From positions 5,271-69,270 of the forward strand of contig DAICZA010000001.1 in NCBI GenBank assembly GCA_027311385.1: a stretch of 64,000 bases of DNA, in the 5' to 3' direction. The notes beneath the pieces are model-generated. The model did no database searches. It saw nothing but the letters and a program-made list of their open reading frames with translations, and had not been told where the DNA came from. Shown here one piece after another: positions 11,015-42,260 of this stretch; the stretch's first letter is position 1; the number at the start of each line of letters is the position of its first letter. A program made the translations under genes and the position numbers. This stretch comes from a bacterium. Its GTDB lineage: Bacteria > Patescibacteriota > Minisyncoccia > Phycocordibacterales > Phycocordibacteraceae.

Positions 11015-12769
11015 TTACCCCGAGCTCGCCGGGGCGCCTGTCTGGGTGCTCGGGAGGCCGCGGTCGGGCGGAACCTGGTAATAGTCAATCAGGAAGTGCA
11101 CGAGGTCAAGGAATGTGCTGTCCAGCGTCTCGGACGCATATTCCACGTGTTTCGGGTTATCTGTATAGAGCAGGATGATGAACCGCGGATTATACGAGGG
11201 GAAAAACCCGACAAACGAATGGAAAAAGCGGTCGGTGTAGTAACCGCCGCCGGGCTTGGTGAGCTGTGCGGTGCCGGTCTTCGCCGCAACCGACATCGTG
11301 GGAATAATCGCCCGACCGCCCTGCAGCACCGTATCAACCATATCGGTCATCATTTGCGTCGTCTCGTGCGCCGCTGTCGCTGAGAAGATACGCGTTGTCT
11401 GGCTCCAATCAAGCGTGCGGGTGATACCGGAATCCAGACGTACGGCGCTTGCGAGGTGCGGCTGTACCATCACGCCGCCGTTGGCGATGGCGCCGAGCGC
11501 GCGAATCATCTGCACCGGCGTCTCCGCGATGCCCTGCCCGAACGACGCCGTATCGTAATCAACCTGTTCCGGCTGGGAAAGATTAGAGAGGAGCGCGTGC
11601 CCCTCGTTCGGCAAGTCAATGCCCGTCTTCTGCCCGAAGAGTTCGGTGAAGTAGGCGCGGAATTTATCCTGCCCCAACTGCGTCGCGACCCACGAGGCGC
11701 CGACGTTGAGCGACTGAAGGATGATTTGCTCCATCGGGATGACGCCGCGCGCCTTTGAATCCCAATTGCAGATATGCGCATTGTTTACAGTGATGCAGCC
11801 CGTGTCGTCATAGGTGGTCTGCGGCGTGATGACACCCGCGTCCAGCGCCGAAGTCATCGTGAGCGGCTTCATAATGGAGCCGAATTCGTGCACGTGCTCC
11901 ACAAGCGGATTGCCGAGCAGGGTCGGGTCCACGTTCTGCAGGTTATTTTCGTCGTAGGTCGGATACGAGGTAAGCGCGATGATAGCACCGGTCGCGGGAT
12001 CCATAATGATGCCGCCCGAGTCGTCGCTTGAATACCGCTGATTCACCTTTGCGATATCGTCTTGGAGCCGCGTCTGGACCTCCGGCTCAATCGTGGTCAC
12101 GACGTCGCCTTCGTGTGCGTCCTTCGCGTTCACCAGCAGACTGCCCACGTTGGAGAAAAGCTCCGCAAAGAAATTTTTATACAGCGAGTCACCCGAGCGC
12201 GAGAGCACGCCGTCGTAGGTCGCTTCAAGCCCCGTTTGGCCGACCAGCGTATCGCCCGAACCGTAGGAGACGATGCCGATAGACTGCGCCGCGAGCGAGC
12301 CGCCCGGGTAGTAGCGCCAGCTTTCGCGCAGGACCTGGACGCCGGGAATGCCGAGTGCGGCAAGCGCCTGCCCGTCCGCGTCCGAGAGGTGGTGCGCGAC
12401 TTCCACGTATACCAGGTTCTTCTTCGCGGCGGCGGCGAGGAAAGCGTCGCGTGAGAGCGTTGATGAAGCGACGGCGCTTATCGCGCTATATGCCGCCGCG
12501 GGGTCGGTGATGGTTTGCGGATTGATGGCGACGAGAAATCCGGTCGCGAGCGTTGCCGCGGAAATGAGTGTGCCATCCTTGCGAGTGAAGTAGATGGACC
12601 CGCGGTCAAAGAGCCCGCTCCCGCCGGATGCGAATTGCCGGTCGGCTTTTTGCGCGTACTCGGCGCCGTGCACAATCTGGATGAAATAGAGGCGCAGGAG
12701 GGTCAAAAGCGCAGCAAGAACGATGAACGTGAGAACAAGGCGAATGCGTGAGCGAAACTGTGCACGCAT
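11015..12769 (-). CDS. ftsI: penicillin-binding protein transpeptidase, FtsI-like (dcw cluster)
   Basis: N-terminal TM, PBP dimerisation + transpeptidase domains (SIMKP..., KTGTAQ). Start placed at the ATG regenerated by element copy 1; the track ORF start 12796 reads through the element. Confidence 0.8.
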   Translation of the reverse strand: MRAQFRSRIRLVLTFIVLAALLTLLRLYFIQIVHGAEYAQKADRQFASGGSGLFDRGSIYFTRKDGTLISAATLATGFLVAINPQTITDPAAAYSAISAVASSTLSRDAFLAAAAKKNLVYVEVAHHLSDADGQALAALGIPGVQVLRESWRYYPGGSLAAQSIGIVSYGSGDTLVGQTGLEATYDGVLSRSGDSLYKNFFAELFSNVGSLLVNAKDAHEGDVVTTIEPEVQTRLQDDIAKVNQRYSSDDSGGIIMDPATGAIIALTSYPTYDENNLQNVDPTLLGNPLVEHVHEFGSIMKPLTMTSALDAGVITPQTTYDDTGCITVNNAHICNWDSKARGVIPMEQIILQSLNVGASWVATQLGQDKFRAYFTELFGQKTGIDLPNEGHALLSNLSQPEQVDYDTASFGQGIAETPVQMIRALGAIANGGVMVQPHLASAVRLDSGITRTLDWSQTTRIFSATAAHETTQMMTDMVDTVLQGGRAIIPTMSVAAKTGTAQLTKPGGGYYTDRFFHSFVGFFPSYNPRFIILLYTDNPKHVEYASETLDSTFLDLVHFLIDYYQVPPDRGLPSTQTGAPASSG

Positions 12770-12890
12770 CCCGTTAGAAATAGAACACGAACGCACTTTT
12801 TGCGCCGTACTCTATCCAGCTAGTGTTTGTAATAACTGTCGTCATGATATTTTTTGGTGCGCTGTGTTCGTGATTTCTAACGGGACGCAT
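12767..12890 (-). mobile_element. start-codon palindromic element, MITE-like copy 1 (124 bp ATG-to-ATG), between ftsL stop and ftsI start
   Basis: Termini ATGCGT|CCCGTTAGAAAT ... ATTTCTAACGGG|ATGCGT with TSD TGCG. A 38-codon stop-free mini-ORF ends at TAA 4 nt before the ftsI ATG. Coordinates +/-1. Confidence 0.6.
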
Positions 12891-12896
12891 GGCCCG

Positions 12897-13178
12897 TTAG
12901 CGCAGTGCGGTGACGCTCCTTGCGGGGACGAACAACTGAGCAGACGGCGCCGCGTACCCTTCGGCGAGATAATTCGTGTCCGTGACACTCGCCACGGAAG
13001 CGAGGTAGTGCGCCTCTAGCACGGCAACCGCAGCCTCGTCATTTTTAACCGATTGCGAGAATTCAACCGTGAGCGCCGCATAACTCATCACAACGGCGAT
13101 AAGACCGATGTAGACGACGAGCAGGACGCCGACGGCGCCGGAGGTAAGCGAAATAAATGAAAGACGAAGGTTATGCAT
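12897..13178 (-). CDS. ftsL: FtsL-like small bitopic membrane protein
   Basis: 93 aa, single TM, positioned between rsmH and ftsI. Confidence 0.45.
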   Translation of the reverse strand: MHNLRLSFISLTSGAVGVLLVVYIGLIAVVMSYAALTVEFSQSVKNDEAAVAVLEAHYLASVASVTDTNYLAEGYAAPSAQLFVPARSVTALR

Positions 13179-40852: not shown

Positions 40853-41253
40853 GTGGTGTAGTGCTTCACGCACCGGCAGCCGTAGGGCTTGATATGCTCG
40901 TCAAAATATTCCTCTCCGTAATCGTAGGTGAACTCTTCCCCCGCTTTGATGCTTTTTATCGCGTCAATGAAAATGCGCCCGCGCTCTATTTCCGGTTCGC
41001 AGTTGGGTGTGCAGGAGTGATTGATGTACCGCGCGATGTTTGAGCGCGCCGCGCCGTCAATGGTCTTGCGGGAGTTCACCTCAAAGAGATACTTGCTCCG
41101 GCTGGTGTACTCCTCGGCCGTGGTGAGCGTCCGGCCGGCGTATTCAATGATGCGCTCCCCTTTTTTGTACGGGCGTGTCGCGAAGAGGCCGAGTCCGGCA
41201 CTCGCTCTCCCCACCCGAACACCGTCGGGGTATGTTAGTTTCTTTCTCGCCAT
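40849..41253 (-). CDS. SET-domain protein (putative protein-lysine methyltransferase)
   Basis: NHSCTPNC, ELxxDYG-like EEFTYDYGEEYF, post-SET Cys (CRCVKH). Confidence 0.75.
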   Translation of the reverse strand: MARKKLTYPDGVRVGRASAGLGLFATRPYKKGERIIEYAGRTLTTAEEYTSRSKYLFEVNSRKTIDGAARSNIARYINHSCTPNCEPEIERGRIFIDAIKSIKAGEEFTYDYGEEYFDEHIKPYGCRCVKHYTT

Positions 41254-41289
41254 ACCGTTTCGTCTCTCCGGTATAGCATTTCTCCGGCG

Positions 41290-41979
41290 CTATTTCCACT
41301 CAATGAGCTTCCCCGCTTTGAGTTCCATAGCATCGGCGCGGCGCACGTAGCGCCAGTTCCCTTTCGGCACGAGGAAATAATGCTTGCGTTCGGCGAGCGC
41401 GTCGGCGACGTTCCAGAGATCCGTCTCGGCGGTGAGCCACGCCGCGCCGATGCGGTCTGCCCCCGACGGGGCGCCGATGCGGTCTGCCCCCGACGGGGCG
41501 CCGATGCGGCGCATATCGAGCGGCTTGGAGTAGCACTCCAGTGTCTTCTCCCGCGTCTCGTTCATAAACCACTCGTGGAAATACGAGAGCGCGAGCTCGC
41601 GCGGCGTCCGGTACACGGGGTCGCGGAAGCGGAGCACGGCGTGATTCGTCTTGCTGATGGCGCCATAGCGCCCGCCGCGCGCATACAGCGCCACGACGTG
41701 GTCCACGTCGCCCTTCCCCATCCGCGACGACAGATTCATGATAATCGGCGGCTCGCCGTGGACCCAGAGCGCGGCGGCGGCAAGCAGAGCGCCCTCAATG
41801 CAGTGCGCCTTCTTCTCGCGCAGGACGCGGCGCGGGGACATATGCGTATCACCGCTCTTCTCCAGATTGAACGGGAGCGTGTCCAGGAAATCCTGAATCT
41901 TCGCCGGCGTAGAGAGCCGCGAGAGCGTCTCATACTCACCGCGATTGAATCCGGATTTGGCGCGAGTGAGATGCTTCAT
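41290..41979 (-). CDS. hypothetical protein (possible Cys/His hydrolase fold) containing a 27-bp tandem repeat
   Basis: Start at the ATG regenerated by element copy 7; KAHCIEGALL...DHVVALY; RIGAPSGAD x2.4. Confidence 0.4.
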   Translation of the reverse strand: MKHLTRAKSGFNRGEYETLSRLSTPAKIQDFLDTLPFNLEKSGDTHMSPRRVLREKKAHCIEGALLAAAALWVHGEPPIIMNLSSRMGKGDVDHVVALYARGGRYGAISKTNHAVLRFRDPVYRTPRELALSYFHEWFMNETREKTLECYSKPLDMRRIGAPSGADRIGAPSGADRIGAAWLTAETDLWNVADALAERKHYFLVPKGNWRYVRRADAMELKAGKLIEWK

Positions 41980-42260
41980 CCCGTTAGAGATAGGAAACGC
42001 TTCAGTCTGTTTTTTAGATATCGTTTCCCCATCCCGGTTTTTAGATACGTCTCCCGAGCCGTTGCGTCGTTTAGATTGCGGCATGCTTCGTAATATACCA
42101 GTTCGTAGGGGCGGTGGCGTTTCGTCCACCCGCGTGGGGCTGTCTGGTGCTGGCTGAAGCGTTTCCGTAAATCATTCGTGACACCGGTGTACCAATAATC
42201 ACTTGTGAGGCTTCTGATGACGTACACATAGCACATGTTGTCATCTCTAACGGGATTCAT
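41976..42260 (-). CDS. GIY-YIG nuclease (UPF0213/YhbQ-like), element-encoded
   Basis: MNPVRDDNMCYVYVIRSLTSDYWYTGVTNDLRKRFSQH...ELVYYEA...; GIY-YIG core with arm-encoded N- and C-terminal extensions (MNPVRDD..., ...FLSLTG). Confidence 0.8.
   Translation of the reverse strand: MNPVRDDNMCYVYVIRSLTSDYWYTGVTNDLRKRFSQHQTAPRGWTKRHRPYELVYYEACRNLNDATARETYLKTGMGKRYLKNRLKRFLSLTG
41977..42260 (-). mobile_element. start-codon palindromic element, full-length copy 7 (284 bp) carrying a GIY-YIG nuclease gene
   Basis: 14-bp perfect terminal inverted repeat ATCCCGTTAGAGAT/ATCTCTAACGGGAT with TSD TGAA. ORF runs from the left ATG to TGA overlapping the host ATG (ATGA). Confidence 0.7.

Follow-up and report, generated by a model that had tools for sequence, protein, structure and literature searches.

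We analysed a 64,000-nucleotide stretch of patescibacterial DNA (positions 5,271 to 69,270 of contig DAICZA010000001.1, assembly GCA_027311385.1), which is referred to below in its entirety as the window. It carries seven inserted elements with inverted-repeat ends, each placed exactly on the start codon of a gene, and the longest of them encodes a small GIY-YIG protein. An earlier note on this DNA had described seven loci with such termini, and all of them exist as described. Its coordinates were right as to the loci but measured each locus from its upstream start codon as far as the rebuilt one; the elements themselves are shorter and are as follows.

12769–12885, minus strand: short element (117 bp) at the start of an ftsI-like penicillin-binding protein (PBP) gene; CGCA duplications at 12765–12768 and 12886–12889 (TGCG on the gene strand); rebuilt ATG at 12769–12767
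14124–14203, minus strand: short element (80 bp) at the start of rsmH, its ends being C..G; duplicated TCCA at 14120–14123 and 14204–14207 (TGGA on the gene strand); rebuilt GTG at 14124–14122
21888–21989, minus strand: short element (102 bp) at the start of proS; duplicated CTCA at 21884–21887 and 21990–21993 (TGAG on the gene strand); rebuilt ATG at 21888–21886
27288–27405, plus strand: short element (118 bp) at the start of def; duplicated TGAA at 27284–27287 and 27406–27409; rebuilt ATG at 27405–27407
29111–29227, minus strand: short element (117 bp) at the start of hpf; duplicated TTCA at 29107–29110 and 29228–29231 (TGAA on the gene strand)
29461–29577, minus strand: short element (117 bp) at the start of a DUF167 gene; AACA duplications at 29457–29460 and 29578–29581 (TGTT on the gene strand); rebuilt ATG at 29461–29459
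41979–42255, minus strand: full-length element (277 bp) with T..A ends, TCCCGTTAGAGAT...ATCTCTAACGGGA; TTCA duplications at 41975–41978 and 42256–42259 (TGAA on the gene strand)
41290–41979, minus strand: host gene of the full-length element, a hypothetical protein of 229 aa counted from the rebuilt ATG, with no Pfam match

Ends, interiors and host genes of the seven elements

Read on the strand of the adjacent gene, all seven loci have the form ATGNN / T-CCCGTTAGAR ... YTCTAACGGG-A / TGNN-gene. The consensus ends TCCCGTTAGAR...YTCTAACGGGA are found in six of the seven elements, the rsmH copy having C...G as its outermost bases, and every copy is bounded by terminal inverted repeats (TIRs) of 11–16 nt with no more than one mismatch. 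The TGNN duplications listed in the earlier note are exact in all seven copies and, as it claimed, the terminal A of the element (G in the rsmH copy) rebuilds an ATG (GTG) at all seven loci. With up to one mismatch allowed, the motif CCCGTTAGAG occurs 17 times in the window, compared with 3.4 ± 1.6 times in shuffled sequence. A motif-blind search of the whole window for 11-nt inverted repeats (≤ 1 mismatch, 45–330 bp apart) flanked by a 4-nt direct repeat recovered exactly the seven known units and no others. Two further candidates were rejected: CCCGTTAGCG at 12893, considered as the remnant of another copy, is the stop context of the upstream gene (GCGCTAA; relatives have GCGTTAA or GCGGTGA), and a weak tblastn match at 34058–34207 that ends in '...FLSLTG' has no inverted repeat and was judged to be due to chance.

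Among the downstream open reading frames (ORFs), Pfam recognizes a PBP transpeptidase (ftsI-like), MraW/RsmH, a class II aminoacyl-tRNA synthetase, Def, HPF and DUF167. The host genes named in the earlier note thus stand, except that Pfam resolves proS only to a class II aminoacyl-tRNA synthetase and finds nothing in the seventh gene. In RsmH, Def, HPF and DUF167 the domain alignment starts at residue 1–3 counted from the rebuilt start codon, and therefore the elements abut genuine N-termini. Mechanical ORF calls at 11015–12796, 13171–14256, 20641–21915 and 29243–29518 run through the elements to upstream GTG or TTG codons.

The six short copies (80–118 bp) have their ends in common with the 277-bp copy. 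Their TIR-trimmed interiors, already reported to differ, cannot be aligned with each other above the shuffled background. The description of the interiors as extended imperfect palindromes holds for a constant terminal stem of 13–16 bp, which is longer in some copies and encloses an AT-richer interior, but the remainder is variable local structure; RNA fold z-scores of the elements range from −3.0 to −6.6. We also considered the short copies as visible deletion derivatives of the GIY-YIG gene (motif 'GTTATTAC / VITND') and rejected this, as their interiors align no better than shuffles and k-mer enrichment in them reflects general AT-richness only.

Empty and filled sites in related genomes

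Comparison with related genomes identifies the seven units as insertions with a 4-bp target duplication. The comparison set consisted of 80 loci around ProS relatives in species-representative genomes, all of them metagenome-assembled genomes (MAGs) of Patescibacteria, the closest named one being Kaiserbacteria. In relatives with 69–82% ProS identity the start of proS reads TATACT-N6/7-ATGAG(A/G)CA without interruption; the window has TATACT-N7-ATGAG / element / TGAGGCA. As the earlier note had anticipated, uninterrupted ATGNN was found in relatives at six of the seven genes, in orthologues with 70–82% protein identity:

proS: loci L141, L142, L148 and L151–L153
ftsI: ATGCG(C/A)GC in L147, L151, L153 and L155
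rsmH: ATGGAAGC (ATGGA...) in L147, L151, L153 and L155
def: ATGAAAGA (ATGAA...) in L146, L152, L153 and L155
hpf: ATGAA(T/C)ATC in L142 and L151–L153
DUF167 gene: ATGTTTAT (ATGTT...) in L142 and L155

Each empty site has a single copy of the tetranucleotide that is duplicated in the window, and therefore the elements are not a conserved regulatory motif, the alternative to insertion that had been raised from the outset. The C..G variant shows the outermost base to be part of the element, which fixes the length of the duplication at 4 bp.

The closest relative (L140), whose ProS is 88% identical to that of the window, has a filled proS site with the same element at the same place, also 88% identical; no copies were found in 10–20 kb of the relatives with 69–82% ProS identity. 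Since the short copies are mutually unalignable and the proS copy is older than the split from this closest relative, the lineage must have gained its copies some time ago.

Other filled sites were seen as well. At L144 (∼ 5170–5325), in another relative, the element on the same proS start has other ends, CCCCAGTTGGAAAAT...ATTTCCAACGGGG; it is a diverged copy or else a member of a sister family that uses this site. The 277-bp copy is 100% identical in assembly GCA_002255405.1. The sister assembly GCA_002255415.1 has the same host gene and GIY-YIG copy; its left flank is ATGAG after a cation-efflux gene and the 5' part of the interior differs. Its duplication is mismatched, TGAG versus TGAA (L231 760–800, compared with L230 1200–1250 and 42230–42275 of the window), which suggests recombination between two full-length copies.

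A gene for a predicted GIY-YIG nuclease with borrowed start and stop codons

The 284-bp locus, treated in the earlier note as merely a longer palindrome, turned out to encode a protein:

41976–42260, minus strand: ORF of 94 codons, MNPVRDDNMCYVYVIRS...KRFLSLTG*, for a predicted GIY-YIG nuclease (PF01541, E = 5e-16)

Its ATG (42260–42258) is the original start codon of the host gene. Its stop codon TGA (41978–41976) is supplied by the downstream duplication and overlaps the rebuilt host ATG (41979–41977) as ATGA. The inverted repeats encode both ends of the protein, PVR(D) at the N-terminus (MxPVRD) and LSLTG at the C-terminus (FLSLTG). No start or stop codon of its own was found in the 277-bp element, and no promoter in limited checks.

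The same architecture is conserved throughout the family. Homologues of the protein form 3,805 clusters at E ≤ 0.001, the named ones coming mostly from Patescibacteria MAGs; among the best 120 of these clusters, 93 begin with M-x-PVR and 104 end with FLSLTG. In the former group residue 2, which reports the duplication, is N in 80 clusters, S in 6, I in 4 and T in 1. Judged by this inferred second codon, 91 of the 93 sit on TGAN, as needed for a TGA stop. Furthermore, 46 of these 91 have no Met at residues 6–12, and the host-derived ATG must therefore be their start. Six independent full-length copies (33–59% GC) could be compared at the DNA level. Apart from the one in the window (59% GC), they come from five contigs (33–49% GC), where they read ATGNN / TIR-ORF-TIR / TGNN with a 4-nt ATGA overlap onto ruvX, a methyltransferase gene, a Bac_transf gene, smpB and a PBP gene. 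Conservation of the ends at the DNA level across this range of GC content points to a constraint on DNA rather than on the peptide. In L007 (1391–1760) a short copy is nested in a full-length GIY-YIG copy, with a CTTA duplication located just 5' of an internal ATG of the ORF and not at A^TGNN.

In the Pfam scan GIY-YIG was the only domain found in the element ORF, with no DDE, HUH, serine or tyrosine recombinase domain, in agreement with the earlier view that these elements lie outside the known repeat families; NCBIfam gave only a sub-threshold match to a group I intron endonuclease. Residues Y13, Y24, R32/R34, H38 and E58 are invariant in an alignment of 27 sequences. An AlphaFold2 model of the 94-aa protein (pLDDT 80) shows a bare GIY-YIG core followed by a single long basic C-terminal helix, with no separate DNA-binding domain. 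The only sequence match in the PDB is the UPF0213 protein BH0048 (1zg2, E = 0.0014). The top Foldseek matches, 1zg2 (BH0048), 6seh, 1ywl and 4xlg, which include EF2693 and the Slx1 nuclease domain, have a probability of 1.00 but weak E-values (8e-4 to 4e-2), and I-TevI comes at rank 29 (E = 1.9). In sequence and modelled fold, the protein is nearest to GIY-YIG nucleases of the Slx1/UPF0213 type and not to those of the I-TevI type. To go by the titles of PDB entries 1zg2, 1ywl, 6seh and 4xlg, Slx1 cuts branched DNA (flaps, junctions and stem-loops). By analogy, a reasonable model would have the element protein cut extruded hairpins or cruciforms at their base in a structure-specific manner.

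Spread of the elements and choice of targets

A metagenome scan for the pair of ends yielded at least 120 contigs with at least 150 non-redundant copies of two terminal types, T..A and C..G; the counts given here and in the next section are among the matches listed. The specificity for start codons seen in the window extends to these copies. Of 76 T..A copies, 68 rebuild an ATG at the head of an ORF of 50 codons or more; for all ATGs in those contigs the baseline figure is 28%. When only T..A copies with an exact 4-nt duplication are counted, 45 of 46 are at start codons, which bears out beyond the window what had been claimed for it. The duplications in these 46 are TGAA (29), TGGA (8), TGAG (4), TGCG (3), TGAT (1) and TAAA (1), the last one being at the non-start site. 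Counting both terminal types, the reconstructed target is the first ATG to follow an in-frame stop in 51 of 56 cases. Short copies with similar interiors are found in the metagenomes at different genes on different contigs, so that the short copies move as such. No copies were found in viral contigs.

Many targets look leaderless, with a −10 box located 6–9 nt upstream of the ATG, and others are operon-internal, where the stop and start codons overlap. Three boxes of the former kind can be read in the window:

42261–42272, minus strand: original promoter-proximal flank with a −10-like box, TATCAT, 6 nt upstream of the original ATG of the GIY-YIG ORF, apparently a leaderless-type arrangement
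27270–27275, plus strand: −10 box TATACT, 7 nt upstream of the original def ATG; in relatives, box and ATG are arranged in the same way with no interruption
22002–22007, minus strand: −10 box TATACT, 7 nt upstream of the original proS ATG; 6–7 nt from the ATG in orthologues

The presence of TATACT 6–7 nt upstream of the ATG in both proS and def (21995–22010 and 27262–27283), kept across relatives (L141–L155), would imply that this lineage makes leaderless transcripts of the two housekeeping genes.

Relatives with C..G ends have other targets too. All eight copies with a TTGA duplication lie inside promoter −35 boxes (...GGGG/TTGACA-N17-TAnnnT; L039, L048, L076, L087, L092, L132 and L134), and the duplication leaves an intact −35 box beside the −10 box; such copies would be a second subfamily aimed at another expression signal. 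Among C..G copies with TTTA or TAAA duplications, length plus 4 is divisible by 3 in 11 of 13 (L026, L027, L035, L036, L054, L087, L088, L105, L137 and others). In-frame intragenic insertion was rejected for the TTTA-duplication subfamily, as the ORF is open across ± 120 nt in only one of 13. Tandem or nested arrays at L035 (2306–2493), L075 (272–453) and L030 (8813–9214), in which neighbours have one tetranucleotide in common (...GGGG TTTA CCCC...), suggest repeated insertion beside an existing copy.

Reading frames and translation of the host genes

The right end of the element reads CTCTAACGGGATGA. In frame 1 a TAA lies 4 nt ahead of the ATG; in frame 2, given a TGAN duplication, a TGA overlaps the ATG; and frame 3 continues without a stop into the host protein. 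From their original start codons, the window's six short copies are read as follows.

12774–12890, minus strand: leader ORF of the ftsI-like copy, 38 codons, ending at the TAA in the right repeat, 4 nt before the rebuilt ATG
29466–29582, minus strand: leader ORF of the DUF167 copy, 38 codons; it too stops at the right repeat's TAA, which lies 4 nt short of the rebuilt ATG
27283–27408, plus strand: leader ORF of the def copy, 41 codons, MNPVRDSGHG...TLSLTG*, from the original def ATG to a TGA overlapping the rebuilt ATG
14208–14206, minus strand: original ATG of the rsmH copy, whose leader frame is in frame with the gene and readable as a 28-codon N-terminal extension
21902–21994, minus strand: leader ORF of the proS copy, stopping 13 nt before the rebuilt ATG
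29202–29200, minus strand: early stop in the leader frame of the hpf copy, which is not coupled

Open leader frames are in clear excess among the metagenomic copies. The frame of the upstream ATG is open to the right end in 35 of 62 start-codon copies, compared with 8.2 for shuffled interiors and 9 for flipped elements; 30 of the 35 stop within 4 nt of the rebuilt start and five fuse in frame. Where copies with similar interiors occupy different genes, both members of the pair face the same way with respect to the host gene, in 18 of 18 pairs (∼ 12 independent comparisons). In the terminal stem of 13–16 bp, the last base to be paired is the A of the rebuilt AUG, and a limited scan of three elements (27150–29700) predicted no sigma-70-type promoter inside them. 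Taken together, the open leader frames, common orientation, stem position and lack of a predicted internal promoter argue that the host genes are usually translated by ribosomes that have first read the element, that is, for termination–reinitiation coupling.

A proposed mechanism and the evidence for and against it

We believe that these sequences probably represent a family of mobile DNA elements, found mostly in Patescibacteria (the candidate phyla radiation, CPR), that capture start codons. The apparently autonomous form would be the 277-bp element, with a single ORF for a GIY-YIG nuclease of 86–94 aa and inverted repeats of 13–16 bp that encode the ends of the protein. It would insert between the A and the T of a start codon and duplicate TGNN. 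The host promoter and the original ATG would then drive the element ORF, the duplicated TGA(N) would give this ORF its stop, and the last base of the element (A, or G in the variant) would rebuild the host start, giving ATGA, so that ribosomes ending the element ORF could restart on the host gene. The six short copies would be non-autonomous relatives that consist of the ends only and presumably moved in trans; translation from the duplicated ATG would end within 4 nt of the host start or fuse in frame. The predicted nuclease may well be the mobilising enzyme, acting on a hairpin or cruciform formed by the palindromic ends. As to the stronger proposition that the 86–94 aa protein is itself the transposase, which would make this an unrecognised class of prokaryotic DNA transposon using GIY-YIG chemistry, we consider the arguments to be evenly balanced.

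Several points weigh against this proposal. It supposes that the predicted nuclease would both cut DNA and recognise the ends, and we know of no hydrolytic GIY-YIG nuclease that transposes with inverted repeats and target duplications; joining by a hydrolytic nuclease would need host ligation and repair. Most of the copies in the window are old, given their unalignable interiors and the one held in common with the relative with 88% ProS identity. The leader frame has an early stop in 25 of 62 short copies, the hpf copy at 29111 included, and therefore coupling is neither universal nor obligatory. Finally, a start codon as such is not visible to a DNA enzyme.

This last point bears on an alternative to the targeting step only, which is compatible with the rest of the proposed mechanism. 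The restriction to start codons could result from a preference for A^TGRR combined with purifying selection in a gene-dense genome, and we regard this as a serious possibility, if a little short of an even chance. The duplication is TGAA, TGGA, TGAG or TGCG in 44 of the 46 T..A copies, and the use of other tetranucleotides (TTGA, TTTA) by the C..G-ended relatives points to subfamily-specific sequence preferences. The host contigs contain 6,093 ATGRR sites, of which 482 (8%) are at ORF starts; most of the others are intragenic, and insertion there would be lethal. However, 736 ATGRR sites lie outside long ORFs, so that the preference and a purge of intragenic hits would, under the crude gene model used for this census, place ∼ 40% of the copies at starts, compared with the 98% observed, a shortfall that also counts against the proposed mechanism if the enzyme reads only the pentanucleotide. 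Either intergenic hits are harmful as well or recognition extends beyond the pentanucleotide.

A different source of mobility is unlikely, although it deserves consideration: the elements could be ordinary MITEs (miniature inverted-repeat transposable elements) moved in trans by a conventional transposase encoded elsewhere, with the GIY-YIG ORF as a passenger, e.g. a homing-type nuclease that assists their spread by way of break repair. Inverted repeats with a target duplication of fixed length are a hallmark of DDE transposases, and an 86-aa nuclease without a separate DNA-binding domain seems too small for synapsis. Nevertheless, the repeats are fused to the ends of the ORF and encode the protein termini in most of the best 120 clusters, over 33–59% GC, and the element has no transposase domain recognized by Pfam. 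The idea of a longer autonomous element bounded by these ends was rejected: in 2.1 Mb of Patescibacteria DNA, inverted-repeat pairs 340–6000 bp apart with a matching duplication were coincidental and enclosed only separate small elements.

Spread by homing, in which the nuclease would cut an empty allele and repair would copy the element in, without transposition, appears very improbable. GIY-YIG nucleases are classic homing endonucleases, but homing needs long flanking homology and leaves no target duplication, whereas these elements are found at unrelated genes with locus-specific 4-nt duplications; besides, the protein is nearer to Slx1/UPF0213 than to I-TevI and has no DNA-binding domain for a long target. 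A conserved cis-regulatory leader or attenuator common to these genes, which would account for stable structures and for perfectly conserved termini around interiors saturated with change, can be practically dismissed, since orthologues without elements have uninterrupted ATGNN, the tetranucleotide repeated on either side of an element is there once at the empty site, a nuclease gene is bounded by ends of the same kind and no Rfam family matches the elements.

If the GIY-YIG protein is itself the transposase, the 277-bp element would be the smallest autonomous mobile element known to us, one that brings along neither a start nor a stop codon and apparently lacks a promoter, and its sister subfamilies would aim at other expression signals, such as −35 boxes. 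It would be a parasite dependent on translation signals, which borrows its start, takes its stop from the target duplication and leaves the host gene expressible. Should the nuclease indeed mobilise it, this would add a new enzyme class to prokaryotic transposition and set a lower size limit for an autonomous selfish gene. The elements would also offer a natural system for termination–reinitiation and leaderless initiation in Patescibacteria, which are hard to culture, and a nuclease of this small size that makes a defined cut beside ATG could be technically interesting. There are consequences for annotation, too: ORFs of this family are labelled 'excinuclease ABC subunit C' or 'putative endonuclease', and just as the mechanical listing extends the ftsI, rsmH, proS and DUF167 frames into the elements, gene callers could misplace host starts.

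Comparison with known systems

In the full-text literature searched, which leaves out most subscription journals, so that an earlier description is possible, we found no description of start-codon-capturing GIY-YIG elements. The closest published statement found concerns GIY-YIG ORFs in non-intron insertions in CPR rRNA genes (PMC11270868), and Patescibacteria and start codons both go unmentioned in a MITE survey of 183,232 genomes (PMC11602168).

Several known types of element were rejected. Assignment to one of the known insertion sequence (IS) families (DDE, DEDD, HUH, serine or tyrosine) is contradicted by PF01541 being the only Pfam domain in the element ORF. Integron attC sites (RYYYAAC...GTTRRRY) have the reverse polarity to that read here from the sequence (GTTAGAG...CTCTAAC), and the last position breaks the consensus, a comparison made with no search aimed at an integrase. 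As for known structured RNAs and self-splicing introns, an Rfam scan of the window at gathering thresholds matched one tRNA and one group I intron, both elsewhere. The intron belongs to an insert of ∼ 600 nt that splits a tRNA-His(GUG) gene (∼ 30860–31565, plus strand). The insert consists of the group I intron (RF00028, 31222–31511, 79 bits) and an ORF for an HNH endonuclease (30992–31309; Pfam HNH, E = 2e-4), and ARAGORN found the tRNA only after ∼ 30901 had been joined to ∼ 31507.

With terminal inverted repeats and duplicated flanks in all seven copies, and single tetranucleotides at the empty sites, the short copies fit the generic definition of MITEs; the autonomy of their 277-bp relative is putative. 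They resemble the Correia/NEMIS MITEs of Neisseria, which are likewise short (80–120 bp) and numerous, with inverted-repeat ends, a fixed duplication and a longer coding relative with the same ends. Correia elements have 26-bp repeats, duplicate TA and are mainly intergenic, whereas here TGNN is duplicated at the A^TG of start codons, the ends (TCCCGTTAGAR) are unrelated and the coding relative specifies a GIY-YIG protein rather than a DDE transposase. The REP/BIME-RAYT and IS200/IS605 systems also combine hairpin-forming repeats with a small dedicated nuclease. They use HUH Y1 transposases and subterminal hairpins and insert 3' of a tetra- or pentanucleotide without duplicating it, in contrast to the exact 4-nt duplication and GIY-YIG ORF described here.

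On the protein side, the Slx1/UPF0213 family (YhbQ-like, COG2827) provides the best matches in sequence and fold, and branched-DNA cutting would suit palindromic ends that extrude hairpins. Its known members are cellular repair proteins or uncharacterised single genes, and to our knowledge none has been reported as bounded by inverted repeats or mobile. The GIY-YIG homing genes (I-TevI and the Seg proteins), whether free-standing or carried by introns, are selfish units whose sole product is a GIY-YIG nuclease, and the catalytic Tyr, Tyr, Arg and Glu are present in the element protein, which differs in having no DNA-binding domain and in being associated with inverted repeats, target duplications and unrelated loci.

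Two other systems are similar in their relation to host genes. Mycobacterial interspersed repetitive units (MIRUs), according to what Supply et al. reportedly described in 1997, are small repeats in operons with short ORFs whose start and stop codons overlap the neighbouring genes, implying translational coupling; they differ in that they are direct repeats in tandem and have neither inverted ends nor a target duplication nor a nuclease gene. The Rickettsia palindromic elements (RPEs) are palindromes tolerated in frame within coding regions, as the rsmH copy with its 28 extra codons might be, but they are scattered within ORFs, not at start codons, and have no known coding partner. Every specific family considered (IS classes, homing genes, Correia, REP/RAYT, IS200/IS605, attC and Rfam RNAs) thus fails in a defining feature, and none of the systems compared unites inverted repeats, target duplication, a lone Slx1-like nuclease and start-codon capture. 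In terms of function, the nearest analogues would be MIRUs, RPEs and the GIY-YIG homing genes.

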